Below are positions 7,801-42,343 of a DNA stretch of 64,000 nucleotides, piece after piece. Below the pieces are notes generated by a model. It saw only the letters and a list, made by a program, of their open reading frames with translations, ran no database searches and had not been told where the DNA came from. Each line of letters begins with the position of its first letter. The first letter of the stretch is position 1. Source of the DNA: Phoronis australis (taxonomy: Eukaryota; Animalia; Phoronida); the NCBI GenBank assembly GCA_002633005.1, contig NMRA01000012.1, forward strand, positions 886,564 through 950,563. The letters are read 5' to 3'. The translations under genes and the position numbers were made by a program.

Positions 7801-8166
7801 TCCTTACGAGGATCAGTTAGTGTTTCTGAACATGCACTGGAGTGTTCTGCAATGTCTGGTGTCTGTTGAGACCTTCATGCACGCATAAACTGATCCGCCA
7901 GTACAATCAACTGAGCCTGAATCAATGACTAATTCAGTGCCACTGAGATTTCCCTAAGCCCAAAACTGATGAAGTACACTACGGATAAACTGAGACCAGT
8001 TTTACAACCCGCTCAAGTGATTTAAATGCGCCCCGAAAAGCTGAGACTGAATCAAGATCTGTGACCAGTGTTCATGGGTGGATCCAGGATTTTGAGTCGG
8101 GGGGGGGGGNNNNNNNNNNNNNNNNNNNNNNNNNNNNNNNNNNNNNNNNNNNNNNNNNNNNNNNNN

Positions 8167-8337
8167 GGACAGGCATGCTGGTGAACAAGAGGGACGTGGG
8201 ACAGGCATGGTGGTGAACAGGAGGGACGTGGGACAAGCATGGTGGTGAACAGGAGGGACGTGGGACAGGCATGGCGGTGAACAGGAGGGACGTGGGGCAG
8301 GCATGGTGGTGAACAGGAGTGACGTGGGACAGGCATG
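8167..8337. repeat. 32-bp minisatellite
   Basis: About 5.3 copies of GGACAGGCATGGTGGTGAACAGGAGGGACGTG next to an N gap; the true array may be longer. Confidence 0.9.
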
Positions 8338-12173: not shown

Positions 12174-13580
12174 TTAATAGTTTTCTATTAAAAAGTCGAC
12201 AGATTCCCATTTTTAGGATAGGTTCGACGTATAGCGGCCGTTTTTATTATCATGAAATTTTAGAAATAGCTAGGTTTCCATTAAGTAGACGACGGGCGGA
12301 CTTGGCGTGTTCTGNAATACCTAAAAATGTGTAACAGCGAAATAAAATAACACGTTTACTCCAGAACTCTAAATATTTGTAAGGATTTTACATCGGAATT
12401 TGATGATTTATTGGTGTGAAACGATAAATTCAAGTGATAAGCTGACACCAGTATGCGTGTCGTGAACTGCTGAACAGACTGCATTTGAACCCCTGACGTC
12501 ATTGGCTAATTTCAACACCTCCTTCTGCCGTCAGGTGTCAGGTAAAAGAGCTGTACTTGCTGTTATCGAGTGGAACTACTCGATCAAAATTGATACAAGC
12601 TAGGTTGTCTTTTGGGTGGCATTCTCATTTAATAGTTTTCTATTAAAAAGTCGACAGATTCCCATTTTTAGGATAGGTTCGACGTATAGCGGCCGTTTTT
12701 ATTATCATGAAATTTTAGAAATAGCTAGGTTTCCATTAAGTAGACGACGGGCGGACTTGGCGTGTTCTGCGCCACTCGACGACTATCTTAAAAAGTTTTG
12801 AGTAAGGTTTTGACATCACCGTCTCCATCCGCCAAACCGCTGGAAGTATCATTATTTACTATTTGAAGATGTTTTCCTGATGAGAAAACTGAGGCCGACG
12901 TTGACTTTCGTACGTGTTCAACTACTCCTTTTGGCAATTTTATCTTTTTTACGTTCACAGGCGTATTTCCTTTACCCTTTTCAAGAACTTTCTGTTATTG
13001 AGAAGTTGTGTTGCAACTTTAACAGAACTTCACCTGTCAATTATGCAGTTAGAGAAGATGTTTGGTGTGTTGTGGAGGTTTCCATCCTAGATTTGAAGCA
13101 TCTAGGAGAATTTATGGATCTGCTGCAAGTACAGCGTTTCATGGGCGCACCCCGGAGGGGGGGGGCTCGACGAATTGGGCAAAAAGGTCCGCCTCAGTGA
13201 AAACAAAATACGAGTAAACGACACAAATGTGCACAAAGGACACAGGATGCAGATGCACAATTCGTAGGCCTGAACCTAGTGGTCCCATGTTTTAGTCCTC
13301 GTTGATTTTGTTTAGTAAAAGGTCCCCATACCGAGAAATTCGAGCCCATCTGTAAGGCTGGGTGCGCGCATGCGTTGACGTGTCGTCCTTGAACACTTGA
13401 GGATGATACATGCACACAGTAAGGGAGGTGCACCGGAGGTACGAGATAATGAAAATGAAGAGCGAGAATAAAGAAAAATTGTGTATTTTTTGTTAATTGT
13501 TATAGTCTGTTAGTCTGCAGTAACAGATATTGACATTGTTTATCTGCACATATATGTATGTATGGGGTTATTGTTGTAAT

Positions 13581-13643
13581 GTTGGTGGCGACAGTAGGAG
13601 TGACATTGGTGGCGACAGTAGGAGTGACATTGGTGGCGACAGG
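13581..13643. repeat. 24-bp tandem repeat (VNTR)
   Basis: TTGGTGGCGACAGTAGGAGTGACA about 2.6 times; the duplicate block at about 14400 has one unit fewer. Confidence 0.75.
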
Positions 13644-13799
13644 GGGAGGGAACTTGGTGGAAACCAGTTGTGGTTATGCTAGTTACGGGATTCCCCTACG
13701 CCTAAATTGGGACAAAGTTATGTCAGATACGCCACACATCTATGACCATTACCCCTAACACCATGTGTCTTTACTTGTTTTTCAGTTGGGACAAAGACT

Positions 13800-14207
13800 A
13801 TGAGTAGTCCAGATTGTTGTGTACTATTTGCTCTGGCTGTGATGATACCGTTTGCAGCAAGTGTGCAGCAGCGAAACGTTCTTGTATTCGGTGGCAACGG
13901 GTTGCTGGGGTCGCAGTGTGTCGAGGACCTTCTAACGTCAGGTTACAGCGTAACTATAGCCAACAGGGGGACTTGGTACTGGGACACGGCGGAGACGATC
14001 AAGAATCGAGTGCGACACATCAAGTTCGATAGATACGATAAACCGTCTTCTGAACTTCTCGACTTCGTGAGCAACAATGCATTAGATGCGATTATCGATT
14101 TCAGTGCATATGTTGGAAGAGTAATAACGAACATCGAGGACATGCTAAAGAAAAACCCACCAAAAATTTACGTTTATATCAGTACCGATTCAGTATACGA
14201 AGTAGTA
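13800..14207 (+). other. partial duplicate of the SDR gene 5' end (likely assembly/haplotype duplicate)
   Basis: Near-identical to 14594-15001 and truncated exactly at the single 'n' at 14208. Confidence 0.8.
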
Positions 14208-14593
14208 NGAACACTTGAGGATGATACATGCAGACAGTAAGGGAGGTGCACCGGAGGTACGAGATGATGAAAATGAAGAGTGAGAATAAAACAATTGTGT
14301 GTATTTTTTGTTAGATGTTTTAGTCTGTTAGTCTGCAGTAACAGATGTTGACATTGTTTATCTGCACATATATGTATGTATGGGGTTATTGTTGTAATGG
14401 TGGTGGCGACAGTAGGAGTGACATTGGTGGCGACAGGGGGAGGGAACTTGGTGGAAACCAGTTGTGGTTATGCTAGTTACGGGATTCCCCTACGCCTAAA
14501 TTCGGACAAAGTTATGTCAGATACGCCACACATCTATGACCATTACCCCTAACACCATGTGTCTTTACTTGTTTTTCAGTTGGGACAAAGACT

Positions 14594-15742
14594 ATGAGTA
14601 GTCCAGATTGTTGTGTACTATTTGCTCTGGCTGTAATGATACCGTTTGCAGCAAGTGTGCAGCAGCGAAACGTTCTTGTATTCGGTGGCAACGGGTTGCT
14701 GGGGTCGCAGTGTGTCGAGGACCTTCTAACGTCAGGTTACAGCGTAACTATAGCCAACAGGGGGACTTGGTACTGGGACACGGCGGAGACGATCAAGAAT
14801 CGAGTGCGACACATCAAGTTCGATAGATACGATAAACCGTCTTCTGAACTTCTCGACTTCGTGAGCAACAATGCATTAGATGCGATTATCGATTTCAGTG
14901 CATATGTTGGAAGAGTAATAACGAACATCGAGGACATGCTAAAGAAAAACCCACCAAAAATTTACGTTTATATCAGTACCGATTCAGTATACGAAGTAGT
15001 AGAAAAGGTAGATTATTCAAAACCATCACGAGAGGAAGACGCCGTGAGACCTTTAGATCCTGTCGTTCGCGAACAGCTGTCAAAACGGGACGGATACGGA
15101 CATGGAAAACTAGAAGTGGAAGAAGTTTTAGCGCACCTCGGAATCCCACATGTGTCGCTTCGTCTGCCTGACGTCATTGGTCCCAGGGATAATACAAAAA
15201 GATGGTGGTTGACATTCCTTTGGATTGCTCTGCCAAAAGGAAAGTACCTTCCATTCCAGGTTCTTGATATGGAGAATACACAGTTGAGCTTTGTATACAC
15301 AAAGGACGTTTCTTCGGCAGTTTTGCAGATTTTGATGAAACCAGAGCCTTTCTTCAACCAAGCAATAAACTTTGCATGGGAAAAAACTTTATCCTCATTA
15401 GAGTTGTACCAAGAAATAGCCAAGCGCTTTCAAGTTGAACTCCACTACGAAATAGCTACCCGCGAATCGGCCGTTCCAATAATATTCCCATCGGTAACTA
15501 GGGGTGCTATTGATGTAACCAAAGCGAACAAATTGGGTTTAATAGCCACTACTGATTGGAAGACCGCTCTAAATGAAACAATCCAGTTCTATCGAAATGC
15601 ATTAAAAGAGACGAAGTTTGAACGTGAGCGACAGGAAGTGTTATCCATCTTGGCTGATATCGTTGGGGAATCTGATGTACAGCGATTGTTATACTCTGTC
15701 TTGGAGCAAGCAAACTTTGGTGATCAGCATGATGAACTATGA
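14594..15742 (+). CDS. NAD(P)-dependent epimerase/dehydratase (extended/atypical SDR), predicted ER-lumenal, 382 aa
   Basis: Open ORF with a hydrophobic N-terminal signal peptide, VLVFGGNGLLG Rossmann motif, YISTDSVY, catalytic YGHGK (YxxxK), LRLPDVIGP and C-terminal HDEL. A splice acceptor (TTTTTCAG, AG at 14578-14579) lies 14 nt before the ATG. Confidence 0.93.
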   Translation: MSSPDCCVLFALAVMIPFAASVQQRNVLVFGGNGLLGSQCVEDLLTSGYSVTIANRGTWYWDTAETIKNRVRHIKFDRYDKPSSELLDFVSNNALDAIIDFSAYVGRVITNIEDMLKKNPPKIYVYISTDSVYEVVEKVDYSKPSREEDAVRPLDPVVREQLSKRDGYGHGKLEVEEVLAHLGIPHVSLRLPDVIGPRDNTKRWWLTFLWIALPKGKYLPFQVLDMENTQLSFVYTKDVSSAVLQILMKPEPFFNQAINFAWEKTLSSLELYQEIAKRFQVELHYEIATRESAVPIIFPSVTRGAIDVTKANKLGLIATTDWKTALNETIQFYRNALKETKFERERQEVLSILADIVGESDVQRLLYSVLEQANFGDQHDEL

Positions 15743-16261
15743 CCAAACACAATGAATCACTATCAACCTGCATACACTGCATGCTGTAACCAAAAAAGTG
15801 TTTACAGGGGGCTAAGCGTGAAGTTGTTGCCGCCTGGGCTGAAAGGAGTGGCAACGTTGGGCACTGCAATAGGAGGGGAAGAGTAAATTGAAATGAACAA
15901 GGGTGGCTAGGGTCCCGCTACATAATTGCCTTTATAGCATCCAATCATCTTGACTAGCCGAGACAGAACAGGACGCGCAGGGAAATAAAATTTTACACAA
16001 AAATGATGTTTTGTTAAAGAGACACAATGGGTTTAGGACCGAGAAAACGTGTTCTTGGGATTTTTGTGTTGGATACACTTCTTGAAGTTATTGGGTCTGA
16101 CCAGAGCTATAAAGCAGCGAAATACGCTATTTCTTCTGATTTTACTTGAAATCGCCGTTCTCAACGTTGGGTTCCAGTCATTCTGTAGAATTAAATGAAA
16201 TCGAGACCATAAACTTTATCAGTTAAACACACATCAGGTAAAGTACACAGCTACTTTCCAC

Positions 16262-16490
16262 ATTGACCTTTAGCTCTAGTGGCAAAGCGTTGTACTTTCA
16301 CCGCTGGGGTGGAGAGTTCGAATCCGTCATCAGTTGGTGTTGATTTCAAGCCACAAAACTCACTAACAATGTTGACTTTAGTCAAGGAGTATTTTTGCCC
16401 TTCATCACTTGCTATCCAGAACCCAGTTACTATCTGGTTAATGCCTTCCATAGTTCGTTCTACTTCGGCTCCACCCACCCCCATTTGGTT
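16262..16490 (+). mobile_element. tRNA-derived SINE remnant
   Basis: A-box-like TAGCTCTAGTGG and B-box GAGTTCGAATCC followed by about 160 bp of body. Most of it is missing at the paralogous site near 52750. Confidence 0.5.
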
Positions 16491-17434
16491 AGTCTTGCCT
16501 ATGAGTCCACCTACTAGATTAAAAAGCTCATTCACTTTTACTTCTCAGGCTCAGGACTGGAGGCCTACTTTCCTGAGAACTAGATAGTTGAGAAAATATC
16601 TCTTGGGGGTGACTCGCTAAGGCTTGTCCACGCCTGTTACAATCTCTTCATAAATTGAAACAAGGGCGTGACGCATTGGTTTCGGTCCGTCCAGTTTTTG
16701 TAATATTTTGAGAAATTTCTAAAACACGTTTGCCAACGTTGCGGAAATGATTGAGGGAAATTGGAATTGCGGATGAAAAGGTTGAACACACGCACCAAGG
16801 AGAGGCTGTGTAGCCTTGGTGCTTCGGCTGGGATTACTGGTGTTACAGTAAACATAAAACAAAAAGAGAAAATAAGGCGTGGGCGCGGGACTGGCTATTT
16901 TGCTTCAAGTTCTTGTTATTTTGCTTCTATATCCCTTTGAAGATGCGACGTGCATGTAAAGGCAGCGACAAAAGGCGCCACAGATCAATCATTTGTCTGT
17001 CTTTTCGTGGTCCAAATGAAACTGATTGACAGCGCTGTGAAGACTGGCACTTCCCACGTAAGATCAGGACTGAGTTCCTGCCGTAAATGCAAGACAGTCG
17101 AGTCACAATGAGAAATTTCTCCCTTAATTAAAAATTCCCTCCTCGCCAACCAATCACTTTATTGGCGTCCAGTTTGGTAGTATACTTGAGAAACACCTGC
17201 CATTCATGCAAGCAATTTTGCGCCGAATCACGGTATTCTGGTACGAAAACTTGCTGTATACCGCAAGATATCACCAATGTCTTGCATGTTTAGATCGCGA
17301 CCAAAATGGCCATCACTCTAGATGTTGTATATGATTGGACAGCTTTGTTAAGATGTTTATTGCTATAGTAACAAAAGGTAGCTAGAGCTTGGAATGTTTG
17401 TGTTGTAACAATTTTTCGTACACTTGCTTTTTAA

Positions 17435-19080
17435 AGGAGCATGCCACCCAAAAAACAACCTAATTTGTATCAATTTAGATCGAGTAGTTGTACTCCATAA
17501 CGACACGTACGGTTGCGTTACCTGACGGCAGACGGAGATGTCGAAATTATCCAATGACGTCATCGGTTTCACACGCAGTCTGTTCAGCAGTTCACAACCC
17601 GGGTTACTGATGTCAGCTTATCGCTTGAAGTCATCGTTTAACACCAATAAATCATCAAACTTCGATGTAAAACCCTTGAAAATACACCGAGTTCTTATAA
17701 AAACGTGTTGTTTCATTTCGCTCTTACGGATTTATTGGTATTTGAACACACCGTAGCCTACAACTAAGTTCGGCAGGCCAATAAGGTCCGTAGCAGGAGT
17801 TTGGGGTCTGTTCGGAGATAATTTCGAAGTATTTTCCGTGAGATACAGATAGGAGAACCTAGATCTGTGTTGTTTAGACTGATTTTTTTAGTTCTAAACA
17901 CAAAACGCTTGTTATCCTGGCCAGTGGGTCGGAGCCCGATCAGGCCCGTAGCGGCCGGCCGGAGTCGATTCCGCCGTTATCCCGGCCAGTGCCGTGCATA
18001 AACCAGCCAAAGTTCAGTGGAAACTAAACTTTCAGTCAAGAAAATACTATACGCGTGAGCCAAAGTAATGTGCACGTGATTATGTTGGTGAATTAGCCAG
18101 GAAACTGCAAATCTACTTACTCGTCGGGGGCCGCGAATTCAGGTTCCGCTTTGGCCACAGCACCGTCAGGGCAGAAGTTGTACATTGGCAATCATTATTT
18201 GAGTAATGTAAATGTAAATAAAGATTCCCCAAACACCTGGCCGTGGGATGGAAATCGAGTTGTTTCACAACATTTTCTGCCAGCAAACACTAAATTAGCA
18301 TGAGCTCACACGGCCTCGGTGTCCCGTCAATTAGTTTTATTGCACCTAAAGCCGGTAACGCAGTGATTTATTCATTGCTGGCTTCTCAAATCATTTGCAC
18401 TCACGAACACTCCAAAGGCATTACAAATTGCATCTAATGAGACAGACTTTGTTTCAGTTTTATATAAGTATTGGTTAGAGTGAGAATAATTCATTTTGAA
18501 ACAGAACGCTCAGTAAACGCCAACACGGCAACTTGCAATCCCGACTTAGGACGAGCTAGAGCTCATCAGTCCCGACTTCGCAAGTGGATCGTTACGTTTT
18601 ACAGGCAATCAATACGAACAGGAATACAGTGATGAAGAAATACTAGAGAGGCGCCGTGAACAAACGGAACGTATGTAGTTATTTGGTAAGCCAGCATTCG
18701 TCAGGCACTGTCGACGTGTGCAGGCCACGTACAGACACGGAGATGTTTCACGGCCTCATACTTGCTATTTACAGCATACATTTCATTCTTCACTACCACG
18801 AGCCACTTCCTAAGCATTTCGGACTCTCGAGGAAGTAAAAAAAACGATATACCCGCTTTCCTCGCAGCTGCTTAGTTCGGTCAAGCGGGAACGATGCACC
18901 GCAACGCAGCGGCATTCACTCTGCATATGAACCACTGACGTCGCTAGCGTCGTTTCTCACCTCCTTCACAGGTTAACGCGACACCTCTTGGCAAGGTAAG
19001 GACGACCGTATGCGAGACGATGTAGATATTGACTGATTAAGACGGCAAAAAAGACTAATTAAATCGAGTGGCATTCTCCT
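17435..19080 (-). mobile_element. Kolobok-like family A, copy 2, inserted in the last exon of the ECI pseudogene
   Basis: TTAA|AGGAGCATGCCACCC ... GAGTGGCATTCTCCT|TTAA. The paralogous empty site CACTTGCTTTTTAATTGTTCCC at about 53671-53692 has a single TTAA, which demonstrates the 4-bp TSD. Confidence 0.92.
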
Positions 19081-19520
19081 TTAATTGTTCCCATTGTATT
19101 GCGGTCAAATGCTTTGCTGATGATGTCCACTGCCGTGACCATTATACTAGCTTTGTTATATCACAGTGTGCCTGGACGATGCCATCTTTGTATGCCTTTT
19201 CTCCTGTGTACCGCCTTCCAAGGATAACAGCTTCGGACATAGCCGCCCCAGGTGGTATTTTTAATCTACAAAATGTAACTCTGTTGAACCCACGAACTCG
19301 GTGACAAGCCCGCGTTGCCGTCAAAGAAACGAATTTTTGATTTAGATCGACAACTGGTTGTAAAACTGATCTGAAGTGGCTACTTACTGGGATTAAGGAA
19401 TTTATGGTCTTTGAAAGAACTCAAGACAATTCGTTGTTGTTGAGATCATAATGCTCGCCGGCCAGTAAAATCATGCAGCCGCATGAATAGCTGACTTGTT
19501 GAGCCTGGCCTTGTCTCACA

Positions 19521-19676: not shown

Positions 19677-21470
19677 GTCTCACTACGCTCGCGTAGTAAT
19701 TATCTGACAATTATTTCCAAGCCAAGAAACCACCTCCAGTTTGAATACGGAACAAATCGAGAACAGTTTCATACTAACTCGAAGTGGTCGAAATGAAAAT
19801 TTAGTTTCTTTTCCATTGGCGGATTTACTAACAGCTTCATTTATTTACAGCTGCAAACTTTCGGGTGAGTCAAATTCCTGAGGGTCTACAAAATTTAGGA
19901 GGCATTCATTGTTTAACAAAGGCTAATTTTATCAGAAATGAAAACTTATTTTCAACAGAAAAATGGTGTAAATGTCCGTTATTATGTTTCTGACTAAAAA
20001 TTACAATATTCAGTGAATCATTATTTAGTATAATCACCGATATAAAATCGTTTCACAGACGCGTAGCTACGTTTGGGCGCAAGAAAATAAACGTAAAGCC
20101 AAGACGACAATAAAGTGAGTTTCTTTAGGTTTGTTTCTGCCAAATATCACTGATACCGTGTTCCGTCGGATACCCCAAGATGTTCAAATAATACCAGACT
20201 GTCCACGACACCTTGGCAAGGGTTTGGTGTGTGGCGAAAATTTATAGACAAAGTTAAATGATACACTTGGCTTATTGCAACTGGTGTTCCGATATACCGC
20301 CACAAAATGACCACAAATGGCCCACTCGGCGTATCGGACAAAAAACAGGCCTAAAGTGATAATTGCACGTGTTTTTCTGACCGTATTTTTGTAGTCTATA
20401 TTCAAAGGATAGCAAACACTATACACGCTTTCACAGTTGCTACGAAAGGTAGCATTGTGGAATGTTGTTTATCATGGCTTCTCATCGGTTAAAGTAATGA
20501 AACCGACGTCATAACATTCAGTTGTTCCCATTGGTTGAAATCTAGGAAACTCTCTCAGTTTACTGTTGCGTAGTATGGCGACCACCTTTGACTTGAATTT
20601 TTATTAAAACGGGCAATAATCGAAGTAAATAAAATTAAGGAAACCCAGATCCAGTAACTAAGCCCGAACAAGTATAATGCATAGAAGGCGTGTGAAAGTG
20701 ATGGCGATGCGATCGATACAATTCCGACGAAGCGTGTGCATTGATTCCCATACACAGAATTCTGTGTGTCGTTTGTTCATGGTGTTTCCATTGGGCCACT
20801 TCTCAATATAGGTGGCGCGGTTTCAGAGGGTATACCAAACACTTCATCGAAAGGGAATTTCTATCCAAGTTACAACATTATATATATACGGATGCAAAAT
20901 CGATCAGTCAACGATTTCACAGAGTATTACTACGGAAGTTGTTAGAAAACCTCTCCCGATGTAATATCACTTGGTACATACCTAAGGAATTCCATCAAGA
21001 AGACATTGAAAGGAAGTCGCACGTGCACCTCGTTAAAGCAGAGCCAGCCTCTCGTGTTACTCATGGCGGAGTAGTCATGAGCCAAAGCTAGGAATGCGCC
21101 AGCCGCGAATGCGTTACCTAGAAATAACCAAGGGAAAGCACGGTGGACGTGTCGATGAAATCGACTTCTAAAAGTTTAGAAAATATACTGTGGCCGTGAT
21201 CTGGTAATACCGGTAAATCCTGCACGGTAGAGTCACCAAATAATTTATGCAGTTGCCGAGTACTCCGATATTCTCACTGGCGTTACTTGGATTATTATCG
21301 CCTATAGGGCGAATAGTAATGCTGCACCCTCCCTCCGGTCGCCACCAATTTCTCTTCTTGGGAATGCTCACGTGAGAGTTATTTACTTTGAATATTGCAA
21401 GAACGTTTGGAAAAAAAATCGCCTTGACACAAGGTTGACAATCTTCCGGATTCGAGGCCCACACGGGTCA

Positions 21471-22027
21471 CAGTGACGGATCTAGGATATCACAAGGGGG
21501 GCCAACATTTCGTCTGTAAGCATTTAAGCAAACCACGACTGTAGATGCGCATAGCACCGAATGGGGGGAGGTCGGGAAGGGGGTTTGCCCGCCAAGGAAA
21601 TTTTTCTGTTTTTTCCTCTAAAAATCAAGCATTTTCCTTGATTCCTGAAGTATTATCCAATAAAAAAGGCAAAAAAAAAACAGAGAACGTGTCAAACAGG
21701 GAAAACTACTACACCACTACGATTTATCTCCTAACTAGTTACTAAGAGACCTACTTATTTATGATCCACAGCGTTTGCGCGCGAAACCTACTTCGTTTTG
21801 TAATGCTTATTACACGTTTTATGTTTTGTGCAATCGGTTCGTAACAAATGTGTTGTATTTAAAATAGTCTTCAATTGCCCAAAAGACCAAATCCGTTTTT
21901 CGTATTGGCAATAATGATGGGATTGTTTTGGAAATCGTCTTAAGTTAAGGTTTGACAAAGAGAGAATTTTGAGTTTCTGAGTGATTCACTAAGGCTTCAA
22001 TTAAAATTGAGATCTTACCAGCAGCTT
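21471..22027 (+). mobile_element. interspersed repeat with CAGTG(A/G)CGGATCTAGG terminus (hAT-like non-autonomous element)
   Basis: Homologous over about 560 bp to the reverse complement of 41730-42343. Absent from the paralogous intron near 55700. Confidence 0.75.
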
Positions 22028-26462: not shown

Positions 26463-29080
26463 TTAAGAGGGACATTTTTGAACAAGTGCCGGACATGAAG
26501 GCACGCATATTCTTCGAAGGAATATTTCCTTTTGTAATTATAAGGTCTTTGATACACTGTAGTCGGAACTTTGTAATGTCACCGGCATTTTTATCAACTT
26601 CATCATCTCTACGTGTTGGGTTTTTTAGCAAAATATTTTTCATGAATGTAATTAAACATGGTAACGTAAAGATCAGACATTTGAACACATGAGGAAAAAT
26701 GGGCCTTTCAAAAACCCGACTAGCGTATATTCAGGTTTGCGGCACCTAGGCTGCCGTGACAAGTCCATGCGTTGTAAAGGGGGGCCCCCAGGGCTCTGTC
26801 CTATGACCCCTTTTATTCAACACATTCATGCTTAAAGGACAGCTTTCCGTTTTCTCATAAGTCATTGTAGATTTTTACATGCTGACGGCAATACCCTCAT
26901 GTATGTCCATAACGATATAGGGCGCGGTCGCAGGTTGCCTATTCAATTACCTGTTCACTGTAAATCCCAAAAGTTTTAAATCATTTTCTTCTCCTGAAGT
27001 GACCTGGACGAAACAACTTTTGTCGCGGACAGTTGTAATTTGTGCCCAACTAAGAGATAAGAAAGTGAACTGAGGCAAGTGTTCAATAATTCACTTGCTG
27101 TCACAAGTACTGACGTCAACCCATTTCCCTTGAATCAAACATTTGCCCTACAAAACTTGGCCCACCGCCTATAAGCTATTGTGCAGAACTGTTTCTAATA
27201 TAGGATCGATTTCTACATTTTAAAGACAATTTTGTTCGATTGGTACATTCCTACATCAAATTGCTCATGACGACGCCGCACTCATAACAAACCCGTTGTA
27301 CAGGCCCGTAGCCATTTCGATCGAACCGCCCCATCCAGCGGAAAAGCTCCAGCCCCGACCTATCCGTTAAAGATGGGATATGGAAGGGCAACAAAAACAA
27401 AATTGTTGCAGTTCCTGATACTACTAACTACAATGATAACGAAGTCACTAATAATTTTGAACTTAGTTCACGTAATCATCGGCTCGTACCCGGTCAACTT
27501 CGCCCGAATGATGTTTGATGATAGGATCGTGCAGACGATTAGAGGATGCTTTATGTTATTCATCGGCATTGAACGCGCGTGATGGCTACATTATGATAGG
27601 GTAACATGGGAGTCTAGAAGTAAATGTATATACATAGCTAAGCTACATAGCAGCGAGAGAGCTCCCAAAAAACTGAAGTAGTGCCGTGTGAACGTCTTAA
27701 AATCGACCAAGAAATAAAATAGCAGAAAGTAGGTTTATTTGCTATTTTGATACCGGCAGAGTACGGTAAAGTGCAGACATTTTCACTTTGGTNTCACAAG
27801 TACTGACGTCAACCCATTTCCCTTGAATCAAACATTTGCCCTACAAAACTTGGCCCACCGCCTATAAGCTATTGTGCAGAACTGTTTCTAATATAGGATC
27901 GATTTCTACATTTTAAAGACAATTTTGTTCGATTGGTACATTCCTACATCAAATTGCTCATGACGACGCCGCACTCATAACAAACCCGTTGTACAGGCCC
28001 GTAGCCATTTCGATCGAACCGCCCCATCCCGCGGAAAAGCTCCAGCCCCGACCTATCCGTTAAAGATGGGATATGGATGGGCAACAAAAACAAAATTGTT
28101 GCAGTTCCTGATACTACTAACTACAATGATAACGAAGTCACTAATAATTTTGAACTTAGTTCACGTAATCATCGGCTCGTACCCGGTCAACTTCGCCCGA
28201 ATGGTGCTTGATGATAGGATCGTGCAGACGATTAGAGGATGCTTTATGTTATTCATCGGCATTGAACGCGCGTGATGGCTACAACATGATAGGGTAACAT
28301 TGGAGTCTAGAAGTAAATGTATATACATAGCTAAGCTACATAGCAGCGAGAGAGCTCCCAAAAAACTGAAGTAGTGCCGTGTGAACGTCTTAAAATCGAC
28401 CAAGAAATAAAATAGCAGAAAGTAGGTTTATTTGCTATTTTGATACCGGCAGAGTACGGTAAAGTGCAGACATTTTCACTTTGGTGTATGACATGCATGC
28501 GTGTATACGTGTGCGCGTTTCCATTCTTTTAAATTCAGTACAGGCCCACGATAATTAAATTCACTATAGGCAGTCCTCCGTCGTTGCTCAAAAATCAGAC
28601 ATTTAAATACATGGGCGGCGCACCATAGAGGGTTGGGGGCTATAGTCCCCGCTATTTTCAGTGCTTCGCCGTCCATGGTCTATGCCGGGGGGGCGGTGCA
28701 CCACAGGGGGCTATAGCCCCTCACTTTTTTCAGTGCTGCATACTCCCATGAACTACTGTATTTTCTTGCACTAAGAACTACCCCGACAAGCATGTTCATA
28801 TCATTAGAGAAAAGTAGATCTAAACCTAATAAAAACTTTGGTCAATGAAGAAAGTCTTCTCTTGTCAATCAGTACCGATGACGCACAGCCTCGCAGGCGT
28901 CATACGAGCAAAAACTTGATTTCCAAGGTTACATGTCACTATTCCGAAGGTTCATCACTCCAAAATTCCACCACTCCGAAGTTACTGCGAAAGTTCGCTA
29001 CCTTCGAAAGTTCATTGTTTCGCTACTATTATTAAAATTTCTTGGTCTATTTACACCGACCTCTAGTCTATATACACTGT

Positions 29081-29122
29081 CACGACGTTTCGGTCGGTCT
29101 CTTCTCCGGCCATCGTCAGGTG
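29081..29122 (-). ncRNA. minimal type I hammerhead ribozyme motif (Penelope pLTR type)
   Basis: The minus strand reads CAC-CTGACGA-T-GGCCGG-AGAAGAGA-CCGACC-GAA-ACGT-C-GTG: core boxes, helix II with 5 of 6 pairs, palindromic ACGT in place of helix III, and CAC/GTG as helix I. Confidence 0.6.
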
Positions 29123-29175
29123 TTCCCTCATTCTTAGAAGAACGAGCACGGATACGTGGTACACTCATTGTGGAT

Positions 29176-29255
29176 GACTCCGTGGTGTAGTGGTTAAGGT
29201 TCTAGACTCGAAGTATCTGTAGTTTCAGAAGTCGTGGGTTCAAATCCTGCCTCGC
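29176..29255 (+). ncRNA. tRNA-derived (Arg-TCG-like) Pol III cassette; not a functional tRNA
   Basis: A box TGGTGTAGTGG (29183-29193), GACTCGAA anticodon-loop remnant and B box GGTTCAAATCC (29237-29247). The acceptor stem does not pair. Confidence 0.65.
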
Positions 29256-29300
29256 ACAAAAAATCACGTATCCGTGCTCGTTGTTCTAAGAACGCGGGAA

Positions 29301-29342
29301 CACCTGACGATGGCCGGAGAAGAGACTGAACGAAACGTCGTG
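29301..29342 (+). ncRNA. minimal hammerhead ribozyme motif, second copy (weaker helix II)
   Basis: CAC-CTGACGA-T-GGCCGG-AGAAGAGA-CTGAAC-GAA-ACGT-C-GTG. Confidence 0.5.
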
Positions 29343-31296
29343 ACAGTGTATATAGACTAGAGGTCGGTGTAAATAGATCAAGAGATTTTAATAATACTTG
29401 TAATCCGCCACCACCTCAGAGCTTCGAATGTCCGCAATTCCGAAACCAGAACTCTGATTGTCTGCTATCGAGTCGGAACTGTCGTGAGAAAGGTATTATA
29501 TTTGTACCCATTTAGTAACTATTTAAAGGGTTTACAAAAATTGAATAATTCTAAAACATTGATTACATTGTTTACAAATGAGCTCAGTTCCAATCACTGC
29601 CAATCGTGAATCTTCAATCTAACTAAAGACTCATTAAGTCTCAAGCAGGAACTGCAACATCGAGTCAGGACTTCAGCGACCAATAGCGGCGGTTTTAAAT
29701 TTAAGAAGACTGAATGGGACTCTCCGACTTCGTGAAGACTGGCAGGGACAGGGTAGCCTACTAACTACATTTAGTTTTGACCCGGCCATGCCCTTGGTTC
29801 CGCAGCAGCCCTAAACTACATGTACTAGCTCAGTCACGCTGTGAAATGATGCGACCATGCATGAATTTGATGAATGTACCGTGCTTGATAATTCATCGAT
29901 ATTCCTAGTCTTATTTCATAATCTTTTAAAAATTCAAGTACGTACTCATTTTCCGTATTCGAAAGACATGCGGGCAATTTCGCATGCGCATGAAATCCGG
30001 GCGTTGTTTGAGCATAGGTACACCACTTAGTGCATCTAATAACCGAAGTGTCGTTTATTTTTGCAGGTAAAAGGGGATATCTAATACACCCAAGTCCGAA
30101 ATTTTAGATCTTTTCTGAGTAATGAACCTTCGGAATAGTGAATCTCTAGAGTAGGGAACCATTGGAATACTGGGCTGTTCCCATTTCCAGCGATGTAAGC
30201 AAGTTAAGTAACACGCAAAATACAACCAGATCAAAATATTCAAGTCCATCATGCTCCGATTAAATAAATTTCCGTTCGAGTATGTAATGAGGTGTAATCA
30301 CCCATTTAAGCACCCCCGGTTTGAAAGTAACGCGGAAACATTCTCTTTCTGGACCACATTACAGGCGAATTTGGGTCCCGTTCTTTGTGAGCAACCGTCA
30401 GGGCATCCTCATTTCTGGTATTACGAATTTCGTCTGATCTTGGGAACTTAGAGCTGAGAGTCGTTGTTGTGTATATAGATTTCCCTTCCCCCTAATTAAG
30501 GGCCTTACCGAAAACTCTAATGTGTCGACGTTTGCAAAATATCAAAGGTCACCGTACAAAAAATTAGAACCACACACCCGCGCAATGCTTGCTAGGGGCC
30601 TGATTGTACAGGTCCACCTTGATTTTAAGCATTCTGCGGAATGGACAATATCGACAGCTGCCAGGGGAAATATAGGTCAACTAATTGGCCAATCACAAAA
30701 GGGTCATTCCATCCTTGGAAAGCGGACTTTAAAAAGACGGCGACGTGCCGAGACTTCCAATTAATCCATGGTAGCCGTTCACCGAGGTTCAAGGGTAACA
30801 ACTTAAGGGTGGCATATGTGTCGGACTCATCTGCAGTAAGTCACAACGAAGCTGTCCGATTTAGTTGCTCGTGGAACCTGTCGGGCTACGATCGGGCGAC
30901 ACCTTCAAGGCGAAGGCAACCTTTTTCCATGTCACTTTGAGCTAAAATAAGGTTGGTTGGTTATCCTAGACATATTTTCCACTTAATTACAGCTTTTCGT
31001 AATTTTATAAATTACTCGTCCGATACTCCGGAAGTGACGTTTTAGGAGGCAAGCGTTTCCCGCCACTTGGTTTTGCGTTGACTTTACCGTGCGAATCTGT
31101 TCTATTCTACTTTTGTTTTGTGCTGTTTTTTAACAATTTTCGCCTCCACTTTCCATCGGCGAGTATTCTGCGGCAAGATAGGTTAGTAGAGAACTCAACT
31201 ATACGTTGGATTTAGGGANTGTGATTGAAATATTCTCTCCAACGGTTCAAATCACCTGTGACCACAGGGGTGACAATTTGAAAAAGTACAAAATCA

Positions 31297-34542: not shown

Positions 34543-34885
34543 TTAGATGACGAATTGTGGGAGTCTATTACAGAGTAAAATGCTAGATGGAAAGAAAGTT
34601 AGAGTTTGCATAGTATGCAGTGCGGATGTATGATCTCTCAAAGGTATGAGAGTGGGGGTTTCGTGATCTGGAGGTATGCAGGAGTGGAAAGTATGAGTGA
34701 GGAATAGCAACCAGGTTATGTACACTCTTGTACAGAAGGGATAGTATGTTCTGAGCTGATCGTCTTTCCAGGAGGGTGGGCCAATTGAGAGTTCTGAGCA
34801 TGGATGGAACGGAGGAGTACCTTGAGTAGTATTTAAAAGGAACCTGGCTGCTTTACGCTGTATTTTTTCTATCTTTTCAATATAT
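34543..34885 (-). mobile_element. 5'-truncated LINE (CR1/L2 group) ORF2 C-terminal fragment
   Basis: IEKIQRKAARF...YSSVPSMLRTLNWPTLLERR...LLYKSVHNLVAI...YYANSFFPSSILL.NRLP matches the typical C-terminal tail of these reverse transcriptases. Duplicated at 35871-36205. Confidence 0.8.
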
Positions 34886-37208
34886 AGTGTGTCGCTCCGT
34901 ATAAGGGTTAGGGCCTTCGGTTTCAGGGTTAGGCACGGTAGGCTAAGTGAGACTATTCAAATTTCTTGCGCCTTACTCCGTTTCGTAGGCATTGACGTTT
35001 GTTTTCAAAGAGAGCTCGTGGTTGTGGCTAGATGCTCTCTCCGCGAGACAGATTTATTTGAGCCTGGCCCACTGCTTTCGATAACGTCTTAAAGTGGAAC
35101 TTGCACCCCAATTCTTTATCTCTGATTTCATGATCAAATTAGAAACACAACATATAGTGACGATGTGCCTAACGTGGTACCCCAAATGTTTTAAGAACGA
35201 GTTTTGACGCGAAAGTGATATAGCCTCGATCACCGTATCCACTCAGTTGTATCATGTTGGGGAATAACACTGCATATGGGACTATGTGAGCCCACGGGAG
35301 CGTTTCTCTAACAAACCTGTTTTAACTGAACTTCTGAGCTCTTGTATGGGCAACATCCTGATCGATTTACTGGGTGTACCCCCACCCCGTTTGAGTGCAA
35401 TTATCACCGTACTTTGCTTGATGCATATACTGACGTGGTAGGGTCAACGACTCACCTGAGGTAATACCTGTGAGTCAAAATTCTGTGCTTGAATTTGAAA
35501 TTCTGCTTTATCTCAAGATCGCATATGCCTCAGATACCCTAGCCAGCCACTGAGCTAGCGGTATGAAGACTATTGTATTTAGTATACAGCTTCGCGCCAA
35601 GGCTACAGATACCCACTTCCTGGTTGGCGGGTAAGTGGTGCCCGGCCTTCACCCATTTTGTGGCTACCTCATTCTGGTGACATCCAGACTTGTTCTTCTG
35701 TGAACTGAACTGGTTATGTATTTGTAGCTNATAAAACTGGAGTGTACGTAACTGTGAAAAATAACAATAAAACAAAGTGCTGGTTAGTGCCAAGATAAAA
35801 CAGGTCTTATTAATTACTGTGTAAAATTGATGTTGAGGATGTGATTTGTGAATATTTCTATTGTTTCTAATTAGATGACTAATTGTGGGAGTCTATTATA
35901 GAGTAAAATGCTAGATGGAAAGAAAGAGTTTGCATAGTATGCAGTGCGGATGCATGATCTCTCAAAGGTATGAGAGTGGGGGTTTCGTGATCTGGAGGTA
36001 TGCAGGAGTGGAAAGTATGAGTGAGGAATAGCAACCAGGTTATGTACAGTCTTGTGCAGAAGGGATAGTTTGTTCTGAGCTGATCGTCTTTTCAGGAGGG
36101 TGGGCCAATTGAGAGTTCTGAGCATGGATGGAACGGAGGAGTACCTTGAGTAGTATTTAAAAGGAAACTGGCTGCTTTATGCTGTCTTTTTCTATCTTTT
36201 CAATATATAGTGTGTCGCTCCGTATAGGGGTTAGGGCCTTCGGTTTCAGGGTTAGGCACGGTAGGCTAAGTGAGACTACTCAAATTTCTTGCACCTTACT
36301 CCGTTTCGTAGGCATTGACGTTTGTTTTCAAAGAGAGCTCGTGGTTGTGGCTAGATGCTCTCTCAGCGAGACAGATTTATTTGAGCCTGGCCCACTGCTT
36401 TCGATAACGTCTTAAAGTGGAACTTGCACCCCAATTCTTTATCTCTGATTTCATGATCAAATTAGAAACACAACATATAGCGACGATGTGCCTAACGTGG
36501 TACCCCAAATGTTTTAAGAACGAGTTTTGACGCGAAAGTGATATAGTCTCGATCACCGTATTCAGTTGTATCATGACGTGGTGTTGGGGAATAACACTGC
36601 ATATGGGACTATGTGAGCCCACGGGAGCGTTTCTCTAACAAACCTGTTTTAACTGAACTTCTGAGCTCTTGTATGGGCAACATCCTGATCGATTTACTGG
36701 GTGTACCCCCACCCCGTTTGAGTGCAATTATCACCGTACTTTGCTTGATGCATATACTGACGTGGTAGGGTCAACGACTCACCTGAGGTAATACCTGTGA
36801 GTCAAAATTCTGTGCTTGAATTTGAAATTCTGCTTTATCTCAAGATCGCATATGCCTCAGATACCCTAGCCAGCCACTGAGCTAGCGGTATGAAGACTAT
36901 TGTATTTAGTATACAGCTTCGCGCCAAGGCTACAGATACCCACTTCCTGGTTGGCGGGTAAGTGGTGCCCGGCCTTCACCCATTTTGTGGCTACCTCATT
37001 CTGGTGACATCCAGACTTGTTCTTCTGTGAACTGAACTGGTTATGTATTTGTAGCTTTGGCTTTATTTTTAGAAACTAATTCAGCAGTTACACCAGAAAA
37101 TTAATTTCTTTGGTCAGATAGTTGAATATTTGTCCTGTCAAAATATTGTCTACTTGAAATCAGTCGATCTGTATTGCTATACTTATTTCGTTTCAGGATT
37201 GATCAATC

Positions 37209-37855
37209 ATGGAACTTATGTACAAAGATCTGTATTGTCGCCTACGTAAGAGGGCCCATCAACTGGGAATTACGGATGAAGATTTACTAAAACATGGTGT
37301 TATTGAAGATTTGAGGGCCCCCCACTGGCGCTGGGGTCATGTCATTGGTTTCATTCTCATCATATTCATTGTCATGTTCGCTACTGTTCTCTCGAGTTAC
37401 TTAGTCAGTTGGCCACTTCCCAGGAGAACTGTGCTGACGTTTGTCACAGACAACATTTTAGATGCAGATTTAGAAGAGGTGCAATGTATTGTGTCCCATA
37501 AAGAGTATGTGTTTTACTTTATTCGGCCGCCTGTTAATTGTAATATGTGCAAGAACCTGTCATCTGTGGATCGAGTAGCAAACATGACACCTATGGAGTT
37601 TGAGAAGAAATATGCATACACCAGACGTCCAGTTGTGATTGAAGGTGGACAGAAAGACTGGTCGGCTGCTAAAACATTTTCATTTGCCTTTTTCAAGAGT
37701 GTGTATGCTAACGACAGTCCTGCACTTGATAGTGACGATCAGAACTGTCAATTCTTTCCTTACAAGACCAAGTTTCATACCCTTCGTGAGGTCTTCAATA
37801 TGAGTCACAACAGAGCACATTTAAAAGATGGATCGGACCCTTGGTACATTGGGTG
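37209..37855 (+). CDS. membrane-anchored JmjC/cupin-domain protein, coding exon 1 of 4 (335 aa total)
   Basis: Acceptor TTTCAG 12 nt before the ATG. Transmembrane segment VIGFILIIFIVMFATVLSSYLV, CNMC, FEKKYAYTRRPVVIEGGQKDW, ending WYIG-TG|GTAAG. Confidence 0.9.
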
Positions 37856-38758
37856 GTAAGTGAACCCTGATGGTTCAGTCTTATGGGTAGATCTCTTGTG
37901 CAAAATACAAAGCAACGTGGAGTTTTGTCCCATTTCTCTTGACGTCATAGCGCTTTAACGTAAACTGTCCAGCGAGAATCTGCCTGAGGTGTGTAAGACC
38001 TCTTGCTGTTTTTGCAGGTTCCAGGCTACATACCTGCCTATGTTACTTGTGTACTCAGTTTGAAACCTGAGAGTGTAATATTACTTTATTTATATGTCTC
38101 AATAGATAAAATCTATATCATGCGAAAGTAATTTTAAAAATTTCTATTTGAAAGGGTTGTTCCACTTTTAGCTTCAAATAGTCACATTTTACCAAATATA
38201 ATAGTCATATTTCAAGTACAAACAATAACCAATTAACTTTGTTTGATGCATTTTTACTTTATAGTTGATTTTCTTAAATTTCATGTTTTGTATTTCGGTC
38301 TTTGTTGCTACAAATCTGCAAAGATGTGGCTATCACCATATATAATATTCCCCGATTCCTTTTCTAAAGTAAATTGTACTAAACTAGTGTACAAAAAGTA
38401 CAAAGCTTAGTCTAGTCAGAAAAAAATGTTTTCATTTTTGTCTAAAGCCTCATGCAGTGTCATCTTTGTCACATGGGTGGTGCAGCACTGAAAACAGTGG
38501 CGCGTGGCTAAAGTCCCCCAGCCCCCCTGTGGTGTACCGTCCATAGATCATGAGCGGCGCAGCACTGAAAACAGAAGCGCGTGGCTAAAGTCCCCCAGCC
38601 CCCCTGTGGTATATCGCCCAAAGATCATGGGTGGCGAAGCACTTAAAAAAGTGGAGGCTATGGCTCCCCCTCAGCCCCCTATGGTGTGCCGCTCGTGTTT
38701 CAGTACCATGTTTGAAAACATTGTCTGGTTTGTATTCTGGAAAGTGACACTTTGTTTT

Positions 38759-38789
<31 letters not shown>

Positions 38790-39040
38790 AATTCATCGAG
38801 ATGCATTCCTTATTACGCTCGATAAAAGAATAGCCTGAATGGAGTTCACTGATTGGTTCAATTGGGAGATTCGCTGCCACTAACTTGACGTGTTCCAGTA
38901 TGAAATTTGAAATTTCTGTTTAACCTAATTAGTGTTAATAGTAACAAAATGGTAAGCCACTTTCGTTACTGTGTACCAAACAAGTGATGACGTGCCGAAA
39001 ACATTCTAGTCGTTTTTCTAATAACCTCGGTATTTTACAG

Positions 39041-39176
39041 GAGTAACTGTGATGGTACGGCAGCTGAAAAGTTACGACAACACTACAAACGACCGTACTT
39101 CCTTCCTAATGTGTCCGAATCAAGTAGGACGGACTGGATCTTTATGGGGAGTCCTGGTCATGGGGCACACATGCAT
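39041..39176 (+). CDS. JmjC protein coding exon 2
   Basis: TTTTACAG|G AGT AAC... gives (W)SNCDGTAAEKLRQHYKRPYFLPNVSESSRTDWIFMGSPGHGAHMH|GTGAGT, in phase with exon 1. A near-identical duplicate lies at 40252-40387. Confidence 0.9.
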
Positions 39177-41729
39177 GTGAGTAGTATGAATGTAGCAAAG
39201 CTTCTGTGGAAATAATCTTTTTTAAAAATTCGCCTATTTAGGACATAATATGACAGACTAGCGAAATTTTACTTTGTCATTTTCCTCACAAAAGATGTAT
39301 TGCAGCACCATGTTGGTGCTTTTTAATTTTTAAGTTCTATACCCAGAAATAGGTTTTAGACGCCTTAAAATTGTGTCGCAATCGTGCTTTGTTTTCTGTT
39401 GTACTCAGACTCTAACTCATTGGCGAGGAAGATCACCAGATCAAAACTAATGTGAGTAAGCAAAACAACAAACTTAGAAACACATGAACATATTGTGAAT
39501 GAACAGATCCCAATTAGGGATTTATGTGTTTGGTCAAATGGAAATGTAGTGATCCGTTTACCCCAACCACTTGTCGTATCACACACTTGAAATGCTCCAC
39601 CCTCTCCCCTTTTAAAAATCAAGCCCACGTAAGACATAAAATCTAATTGCAAAGATTTTCAGTTGTACAGAACACTGAACTATCACTAATTTAGGACACA
39701 ACATAGCAGAAGTGGGAAAAATAATTGTTATCTTTTTGATAAAACAAGGGTAACAGCAAATATAACGCTTTAATTGGTAATCATTTTGATTTATTGTGGG
39801 CAATCACATCAATGTTAGTGACTTTGATAAATGAAAAGAATCAAATTTTGACTATTATTTTTGTCTGAAATATGTGAGCCCATGTGTTTTGGGTGTTATC
39901 GAACCTAAGAATCAATATAAACCAATCTAAGAAATGCATAGCATAGGAACTTAGTACTCATTTTAGCCAATTCAAAGATTGTATCTGTCAGGCGTCTATT
40001 AAACTGACATGTTTCAGATGTGTACGATGTCATATGCAGGGACATACTGAGCCGCTCGCCCAGTCGCCAAAGCGAGTAAAAATGGTGCTNCTAACTTGAC
40101 TTGTTCCAGTATGAAATTTGAAATTTCTGTTTAACCTAATTAGTGTTAATAGTAACAAAATGGTAAGCCACTTTCGTTACTGTGTACCAAACAAGTGATG
40201 ATGTGCCGAAAACATTCTAGTCGTTTTTCTAATAACCTCGGTATTTTACAGGAGTAACTGTGATGGTACGGCAGCTGAAAAGTTACGACAACACTACAAA
40301 CGACCGTACTTCCTTCCTAATGTGTCCGAATCAAGTAGGACGGACTGGATATTTATGGGGAGTCCAGGTCATGGGGCACACATGCATGTGAGTAGTATGA
40401 ATGTAGCAAAGCTTCTGTGGAAATAATCTTTTTTAAAAATTCGCCTATTTAGGACATAATATGACAGACTAGCGAAATTTTATTTTGTCATTTTCCTCAC
40501 AAAAGATGTATTGTAGCACCATGTTGGTGCTTTTTAATTTTTAAGTTCTATACCCAGAAATAGGTTTTAGACGCCTTAAAATTGTGTCGCAATCGTGCTT
40601 TGTTTTGTGTTGTACTCAGACTCTAACTCATTGGCGAGGAAGATCACCAGATCAAAACTAATGTGAGTAAGCAAAACAACAAACTTAGAAACATATGAAC
40701 ATATTGTGAATGAACAGATCCCAATTAGGGATTTATGTGTTTGGTCAAATGGAAATGTAGTGATCCGTTTACCCCAACCACTTGTCGTATCACACACTTG
40801 AAATGCTCCACCCTCTCCCCTTTTAAAAATCAAGCCCACGTAAGACATAAAATCTAATTGCAAAGATTTTCAGTTGTACAGAACACTGAACTATCACTAA
40901 TTTAGGACACAACATAGCAGAAGTGGGAAAAATAATTGTTATCTTTTTGATAAAACAAGGGTAACAGCAAATATAACGCTTTAATTGGTAATCATTTTGA
41001 TTTATTGTGGGCAATCACATCAATGTTAGTGACTTTGATAAATGAAAAGAATCAAATTTTGACTATTATTTTTGTCTGAAATATGTGAGCCCATGTGTTT
41101 TGGGTGTTATCGAACCTAAGAATCAATATAAACCAATCTAAGAAATGCATAGCATAGGAACTTAGTACTCATTTTAGCGAATTCAAAGATTGTATCTGTC
41201 AGGCGTCTATTAAACTGACATGTTTCAGATGTGTACGATGTCATATGCAGGGACATACTGAGCCGCTCGCCCAGTCGCCAAAGCGAGTAAAAATGGTGCT
41301 AGGCGAGTAGAAGTTGACTTGTCGGTCGCCCAGGTGGCGAGCGAATTTTTTGTGCGCAAAAGCGCTATATCGTTTCCCAGATGAAAATGAATAAATTTCT
41401 CCTCCTCGTGCTGTTTTTATCATTAATTTAAGATTCAGTTTGGTCAACGTCTCGATGCTCCGGCTGTAAAAAACATCGGCGCTGTGCAATCCTACCGACT
41501 CAGTTGATGTCACCCATTACGCGATTCTCCTAGACTAAAGATCACGTTGTGTGGTCGTGCACAAAGGAGTTTGTGGACTAGTCCGAAAGGAAGAAAAGAA
41601 GAAAAGGGGGTAAAGGCGGAAGACCGGTCCAAGTGAAGTACCATATTTCCAGGAACTGATTTCTTATTGTAATGTACAATGTCATTTTAACCAAAATCAT
41701 TTTATAAATAATAACATTCGTCCTAATTA

Positions 41730-42343
41730 AGCTGCTGGTAAGATGTGAATTTTAATCGAAGCCTTAGTGAATCACTCAGAAACTCTTTAATTCTCTCTTT
41801 GCCAAACCCTAACTTAAGACTATTTCCAAAGCAATCCCGTCATTATTGCCAACACGAAAAACGGATTTGGTCTTTTGAGCATTTGAAGACTACTTTAAAT
41901 ACAACAAATTTGTTAACAACCGATTGCACAAAATATAAAACGTTTAATAAGCATTACATAAAGAAGTAGGTTTCGCGCGCAAACGCTGTGGACCATAAAG
42001 AAGTAGGTCTCTTAGTTAAAGGTCATTAGTGAAGTCGTGGTGGTGTAGTGGTAAAGCACGCGCGTCCTAACAGCCAGTTCTTGAGTTCGACTCTGTGAGT
42101 TCGAGTCTGTGGAACTCGCAGTTTTTCCTATGTGCCTTTTTTCTTGGATTATACATCAGAAATCAAGGAAAATGCTTGATTTTTAGAGGAAAAAACAGAA
42201 AAATTTTCTGGGCGGGGGGGCAAACCCCCCTCCCGACCTCCCCCCATTCGGTGCTATGCGCATCTACAATCGTGCTTTGCGCAAATGCTTACAGCCGGAC
42301 AAAATGTTGGGCCCCCCCTTGTGATATCCTAGATCCGCCACTG
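41730..42343 (-). mobile_element. second copy of the 21471-22027 repeat, containing a tRNA-like A/B-box cassette
   Basis: Reverse-complement homology. A box TGGTGTAGTGG at 42041-42051, two B-box-like motifs at 42083-42093 and 42097-42107, and a T-run at 42122. Confidence 0.75.

Follow-up and report, generated by a model that had tools for sequence, protein, structure and literature searches.

A short repeat with a tRNA-like head, hammerhead motifs and a Penelope-type insertion pattern in a phoronid contig

Short interspersed nuclear elements (SINEs) are described as dependent on long interspersed nuclear elements (LINEs). Here we analyze a non-coding repeat that joins a tRNA-like head, as in SINEs, to a hammerhead-bearing end repeat of the kind found in Penelope-like elements (PLEs). 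The repeat lies within a 64-kb stretch of Phoronis australis DNA (contig NMRA01000012.1, forward-strand positions 886,564 to 950,563), which we call the window and whose own numbering is used below. Like classical tRNA SINEs, it has a tRNA head, A and B boxes ~10–15 nt from the 5′ end and a tail borrowed from an autonomous element; unlike them, it has an inverted second arm and no LINE tail, terminal poly(A) or target-site duplication (TSD).

The endonuclease-bearing PLEs compared were Penelope/Poseidon, Neptune, Adineta Pen2/Pen2a (PMC3846280) and Anolis PAc (PMC11167929), together with those in PMC8557442. Like them, the window element has a minimal hammerhead in its end repeat, an inverted 5′-truncated copy at its 5′ end, a one-sided 30–40-nt tail and microhomology junctions; in PLEs a TSD is optional. 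Unlike them, it lacks an open reading frame (ORF), and its arm is immediately preceded by a tRNA-derived A/B-box head; the cited texts, as far as consulted, give TATA/Inr-like promoter motifs for PLEs. Hammerhead pairs on opposite strands 100–700 bp apart have already been reported (PMC4209133).

Three other groups share parts of this design. Schistosome Sm-alpha/Sj-alpha repeats, known to us second-hand (PMC6765202, PMC2770079, PMC8490949), are high-copy short repeats that combine an RNA polymerase III (Pol III)-type promoter with a type I hammerhead. They form tandems and are cut from multimers, and their hammerheads are counted as canonical (PMC4209133), whereas the window copy is a fold-out pair with a PLE tail and a minimal ribozyme. 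Metazoan non-LTR (long terminal repeat) retrozymes are likewise non-coding, hammerhead-bearing and proposed to be moved by PLEs (PMC7229834, bioRxiv 10.64898/2026.07.22.740005), and retrozymes have been viewed as non-autonomous PLEs (PMC7761336, PMC7229834). Unlike the window element, metazoan retrozymes are defined by tandem units and circular RNA, and a term search of the accessible text of PMC7229834 and the bioRxiv paper returned no tRNA head or Pol III promoter. The TRIMp3 elements Helenus, Ajax and Cassandra (PMC10886601) also hold a small-RNA-derived Pol III promoter in a terminal repeat, but use LTR machinery with a primer-binding site, polypurine tract and TSDs; the window element would be their Penelope counterpart. 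Each part is thus known separately, and the surprise lies in the combination. We found no tRNA-headed element with a PLE insertion pattern in the literature searched (most subscription papers, Repbase and Dfam lay outside it), including the accessible parts of PMC8969392 and PMC13282606.

Extent and insertion pattern of the repeat

The initial annotation, made from the letters alone, proposed a Penelope-mobilised SINE or retrozyme at 29027..29396, with a tRNA-type promoter between two inverted hammerhead arms. The arms lie where it placed them: 29027–29158 and 29265–29396 are 132 nt each and 95% complementary (7 mismatches) around a 106-nt spacer, and both carry the hammerhead core as CAC-CTGACGA-T-helix II-GAAACGTC-GTG. 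The insert itself is longer (Table 1). We followed copies in the DNA sequencing runs X1, X2 and X3 (X1 and X2 are one sample) and the RNA runs X5, X6 and X7. One X1 contig matches 29422–29569 with 2 differences and 1 gap, so the sequenced organism belongs to the species of the window or to one closely related. Host-repeat contigs depart from the window at 29014 and arm contigs start at 29025; since host contigs pass from 29014 directly to sequence from 29422 onward, the insert is 29015–29422.

Table 1. Coordinates of the repeat, its parts and the adjoining host sequence
Feature	Positions	Strand	Basis or remark
Host repeat, left part	28936..29014		resumes at 29422/29423; 7 X2 contigs go from 29014 to sequence matching 29422 onward
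Whole insert	29015–29422		boundaries defined by sequencing reads
10-nt filler, left junction	29015..29024		neither arm nor host repeat; similar to host ~20 nt upstream
Inverted arm, 5′-truncated, no tail, 3′ end outward	29025..29173	-	inverted repeat; contigs spanning 29025–29172
Minimal type I hammerhead motif, left arm	29081..29122	-	predicted cut between 29084 and 29083
tRNA-derived head	29171..29258	+	meets left arm through TGG overlap, 29171–29173
A box	29183..29193	+	fits SINE promoter consensus in PMC8969392
B box	29237..29247	+	strict A+B pattern scan
A-rich linker	29258..29267	+	contig loose ends and joints
Right arm (Penelope-type end repeat), collinear with head	29265..29398	+	inverted repeat; contig loose ends
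Minimal hammerhead motif, right arm	29301..29342	+	predicted cut after 29339
T4 run, A-flanked, within arm	29386..29389	+	first plus-strand T4 after head
One-sided tail (part), AC-rich	29399..29422	+	loose ends before 29025 match tail

The two ends of the insert are unequal. The right arm goes on to 29422, and the left arm stops at 29025, the equivalent of 29398. The tail is ~40 nt long in the family, as loose ends behind 29422 share ~16 more letters in all four runs compared there. Loose ends before 29265 (8 X1 and 14 X2 contigs) give the family junction as an A-run followed by 16–19 nt. The right arm of the window copy has lost these ~16–19 nt of the family arm start between two CAC triplets; they are kept in the left arm, which therefore reaches 29173 and overlaps the head by TGG.

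The junction between inverted arm and head differs from copy to copy. Seven X2 contigs, six at depth 46–80 and one at 29, join the two at seven different breakpoints (29055>29197, 29063>29170, 29074>29216, 29091>29206, 29092>29171, 29092>29175 and 29114>29185), so every insertion forms its palindrome anew. None of the seven arm breakpoints falls at the ribozyme cut (29083/29084), and we rejected a derivation of the arms from ribozyme-cut RNA. At the read-defined boundaries 29015/29422 no letters are duplicated, and ~3 nt of target are missing relative to other host copies. An inverted 5′-truncated copy and a one-sided 30–40-bp tail are PLE hallmarks (PMC8557442), and Adineta PLEs insert with or without a TSD (PMC3846280). 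The window family has both hallmarks, together with the variable breakpoint; the TSD and LINE-type 3′ end of tRNA SINEs are absent, the 3′ end being PLE-type.

The annotation had held out the possibility that the arms are terminal inverted repeats (TIRs) of a miniature inverted-repeat transposable element (MITE). The TIRs of such a DNA transposon would hold hammerhead-like words by chance. An inverted repeat of 132 bp with a short spacer between its arms is what a MITE would leave. Its inner breakpoints, however, would not vary, nor would its outer ends be unequal, its TSD missing or its depth graded from 5′ to 3′ (see below). Without fixed TIRs or a constant TSD, we rejected this explanation, whose probability we put close to nil. 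The insertion pattern is that of a PLE, not a MITE.

The host region is itself made of nested repeats, bounded by a 30-bp inverted repeat (28936–28965 and 30112–30141).

Head, promoter boxes and copy linkage

The A and B boxes were found at the positions first given for them (29183 and 29237). The strict pair of patterns occurs once in the window, at 29183–29247, and not at all in 300 order-2 Markov simulations. As in tRNA SINEs, the boxes lie near the 5′ end of the head, which starts at ~29171–29175. The head neither folds nor scores as a tRNA: ARAGORN reports no tRNA there, the Rfam tRNA model gives 12.4 bits (E 4.2), under its gathering score of 29, and the fold z-score is -0.15. With its boxes intact and its cloverleaf lost, the head is, judged from sequence, a degenerate tRNA, which we presume to be closest to a serine tRNA with a CGA anticodon.

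A second tRNA-like stretch lies at 42032–42125 in the window, with the same A box, a doubled B-box-like word and then T runs. It sits in a repeat whose other copy (21470–21756) is shorter there.

We observed that the junction of head and arm recurs across copies, with joints in X2, X3, X5 and X7, and we rejected the chance single-copy capture that the annotation had named as a refutation. Against a reference of left arm plus head, 7 of the 15 joints listed link the 3′ end of the head to the 5′ part of the arm. The best of those listed, 29166/29264, is carried in X3 by one contig at depth 182 (8 listed single contigs have 2.4–7.7; the last head bin has 417), and elsewhere by two X2 contigs, 15 X5 reads and 6 X7 reads. 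No contig in the DNA runs spans the whole element, and linkage is not universal: in 12 X2 contigs the arm starts at an A-run with no recognised head. The element thus belongs to a dispersed multi-copy family in which head is linked to arm, and the window holds a worn copy of this high-copy, non-coding short repeat.

Summed X2 contig depth, which is not a copy number, rises from 4,126 at the 5′ end of the head through 4,126–19,182 over the head and 42,051 over the hammerhead to 118,071 at the 3′ end of the arm, compared with 23–57 for listed single contigs. Such a rise is what 5′ truncation predicts. Roughly, there are hundreds of heads, and arms are more numerous.

A subset of heads also shares ~30 nt of AT-rich sequence upstream, seen in all three RNA samples and in X2. 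The RNA reads concerned (17 and 24 in X5, 16 in X6 and 34 in X7) agree at 0.79–0.87, and 11 X2 contigs give a similar consensus with agreement 0.55.

Hammerhead motifs and Penelope relatives

The two hammerhead motifs are the sole matches to the minimal-hammerhead topology in the window, compared with 0.03 expected from 300 order-2 Markov simulations. Both have the CUGANGA and GAAA boxes, NUH site and type I topology of PLE minimal hammerheads, as well as the extra T before helix II, the G10.1–C11.1 pair and the palindromic 15.2–16.2 (ACGU). On these features the ribozyme motif reads as PLE-type. Described PLE minimal hammerheads have a helix II of 7–8 bp and a helix I of 4–5 bp (PMC4209133). 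In the left arm, helix I has 3 bp, helix II pairs 5 of 6 positions, and helix III is the palindrome ACGU; a 3-bp helix I also occurs in 11 of 39 distinct metagenome cores, among which the left helix II (-4.1 kcal/mol) is mid-range. The right helix II has 4 of 6 pairs and -0.6 kcal/mol, damaged by changes at 29327 and 29330 that are absent from most copies, and the plus-strand hammerhead is decayed.

Unconstrained folds lack the hammerhead fold, and the constrained left-arm fold is 5.6 kcal/mol worse; Rfam reports no hammerhead family in 28500–30000 (one chance-level match), and the hammerhead pattern has no match in viral contigs. The annotation had further expected the core to be better conserved than its flanks. 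The variants point faintly in that direction: none of 20 listed variant positions falls in the 21-nt core, a post hoc and weak result (p 0.038), and no compensatory helix change is visible among the listed variants, which come from reads and contigs rather than a copy alignment.

The 3′ part of the arm contains, at 29363–29369 (29054–29060 in the left arm), 7 nt that are perfectly complementary to the helix II 3′ strand in its left-arm form. The C–A mismatch in helix II seems fixed in the family, and with this complement a competing fold would be possible.

The label 'retrozyme' did not hold for the window copy, which lacks tandem hammerheads. A tandem hammerhead retrozyme or Sm-alpha-like satellite would spread by ribozyme-cut monomers that are circularised and reverse transcribed; the Sm-alpha design pairs a Pol III promoter with a hammerhead (reviewed in PMC6765202), and the upstream sequence shared by some heads could be the preceding tandem unit. 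The window, however, contains no tandem copy of the element, the cut site matches none of the arm breakpoints, no RNA ends pile up there, and the ribozyme belongs to the minimal class, which has low activity. This origin is very improbable. We also rejected an intramolecular hammerhead dimer, because the two motifs lie on opposite strands and cannot pair within one transcript.

A scan of metagenomes for the same hammerhead subtype gave 61 matches in 56 loci (L005, a high-GC, bacterial-looking chance match, is kept in these totals and left out of the helix counts). PLE-type ORFs match 13 of the 56 loci, always on the strand of the hammerhead, and 10 loci have an inverted repeat nearby. Eight of these 13 match by construction, since the same 8 ORFs served as the tblastn queries; two of the 8 have RVT_1 and GIY-YIG, one RVT_1 only, one GIY-YIG only and four neither. 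In the 400 nt upstream of the 61 hammerheads no B box occurs (at least 150 nt were available for 59 of them), implying that the head is special to the family of the window element. A blastn comparison of the element with the 56 loci gave no match at E 0.01 among the matches listed.

In four loci (L007, L017, L024 and L046), two minimal hammerheads that differ from each other stand back to back, ~84 nt apart and on opposite strands. In five PLE-like loci (L002, L016, L026, L033 and L036), a long first ORF separates the hammerhead from the reverse transcriptase (RT) ORF, a two-ORF layout.

Candidate templates, sources and neighbouring sequence

A-flanked T4 runs terminate poorly. The annotation had noted no plus-strand T4 between the head and ~29386, which is correct (Table 1), and had proposed a transcript of ~210 nt ending there. 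That transcript cannot be the template, because the family 3′ ends, at ~29398 and ~40 nt further, lie beyond the T4. What survives of the proposed Penelope-mobilised, tRNA-headed element is that it is non-coding, multi-copy and inserted in the PLE manner; the 210-nt template goes, as does the retrozyme label.

That a PLE copied the element and that its head belongs to the family is very probable, and Penelope enzymes, not the LINE enzymes used by ordinary SINEs, are the likely copying machinery. The head probably acts as a promoter, as its sequence suggests. Our tentative overall reading is that a Penelope RT-endonuclease copied the element from a head-started non-coding RNA whose source was a longer Penelope-type unit. 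We slightly favour a head within the end repeat of such a unit over a separate SINE.

Given intact boxes and joints that enter the head at 29170–29175, Pol III would start near 29171–29175 and read through the A-flanked T4. A Penelope protein would then nick both target strands, and reverse transcription would begin inside the RNA at two sites, ~29398 and ~40 nt further. For Anolis PAc, in vitro work shows that the protein nicks both strands and extends each of them, two internal RT starts bracket the tail, RNA beyond them is needed and hammerhead cleavage is dispensable (PMC11167929). Two PAc-like starts account for the unequal ends of the window insert. One cDNA, from the tail, would run to the head, and the other, from the inner site, would stop early, in the linker; the two would then be linked head to head through a short stretch of overlap. 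A fold-back route (PMC3846280) may be another way to form the inverted arm. The hammerhead would probably be dispensable for insertion. Since the template has to extend beyond the tail and some heads share upstream sequence, the source would most likely be a longer Penelope-type unit with the head in its own end repeat. Most of the short copies would then be dead ends that behave like a SINE.

Several observations weigh against this reading. No PLE ORF was found in the window by tblastn with 8 PLE-type ORFs, leaving the parent PLE unseen, and the reading frame that opens at the hammerhead ATG ends after 16 codons in the window copy, unlike that of Anolis PAc. The copy estimate draws on summed contig depth, and the four DNA runs, all from one study, contain just 0.19–0.28 of sampled words; the run search listed no RNA run as containing them. 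RNA starts and ends do not pile up at the head or the hammerhead cut in X5, X6 or X7, where reads lie on both strands and 76–87% continue into unlike sequence. Breakpoints cluster weakly at the head start, with 3 of 7 joints there (p 0.008), but 1 of 5 (p 0.29) once one joint of unknown spacing is dropped and two with a common arm breakpoint are merged. A few heads stop with no arm attached, as in 3 X3 contigs at 29254 and a single truncation at 29212. Headless arms with different upstream sequence form a common second class (32 X5 and 27 X7 reads, and some among a set of 6 X3 contigs), in keeping with a separate headless parent.

Such a parent is the starting point of a rival that we hold to be possible but doubtful. 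Here, an A-rich-ended tRNA-derived gene would have fused once to a headless Penelope end repeat, creating a separate tRNA SINE that spreads in trans from the chimera's own Pol III master copies, through an RNA longer than the ~210 nt first proposed. The A-run at the junction is as in SINE birth, upstream B boxes are absent from same-subtype hammerheads elsewhere, and the window copy joins the 3 of 7 inverted-arm joints in entering the head at 29170–29175, 8–13 nt before the A box. Copies of this kind would, however, end at the RT starts and so be without the downstream RNA required by PAc (PMC11167929). Moreover, the sequence upstream of some heads would be absent from a Pol III transcript, and there is no TSD.

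Another reading, which we judge unlikely, takes the head as passive cargo: a tRNA pseudogene captured beside a Penelope end repeat and carried in read-through or Pol II transcripts, its boxes idle. In Adineta, the end repeats of PLEs move captured, unrelated sequence in trans (PMC3846280), and the both-stranded RNA reads that run into flanks with no discrete start fit such transcripts, as does the upstream sequence carried by roughly half of the RNA depth at the head 5′ end. Short Pol III RNAs, however, are poorly sampled by standard RNA-seq, and both boxes are intact despite the lost cloverleaf. Only 1 of 13 listed head variant positions lies in a box, at a position where the consensus allows it (p 0.09; post hoc and weak).

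More broadly, we lean towards the view that Penelope retroelements come with a class of Pol III-driven, tRNA-headed short elements of their own, whether true SINEs or end-repeat promoters, with independent origins in at least two invertebrate lineages. If true, Pol III promoter capture extends to a third retroelement class, with a Penelope counterpart of LINE-dependent SINEs and TRIMp3. The element would also offer a natural substrate of ~270 nt with known ends for studying inverted-arm and tail formation and the role of the minimal hammerhead.

Elsewhere in the window, near-identical tandem duplicates meet at single Ns (13391–15742, 27095–28400, 34594–36900 and 38875–40400) and are probably haplotype overlaps of the assembly. 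An intronless ORF of the NAD-dependent epimerase family occupies 14594–15742, and a second long ORF occupies 37203–37859. In a protein search the best matches were ~40% identical; they placed the host no more narrowly than among invertebrate animals and included none from a close relative. By eye, THAP-like ORFs start at ~34095 and 51820 on the minus strand.

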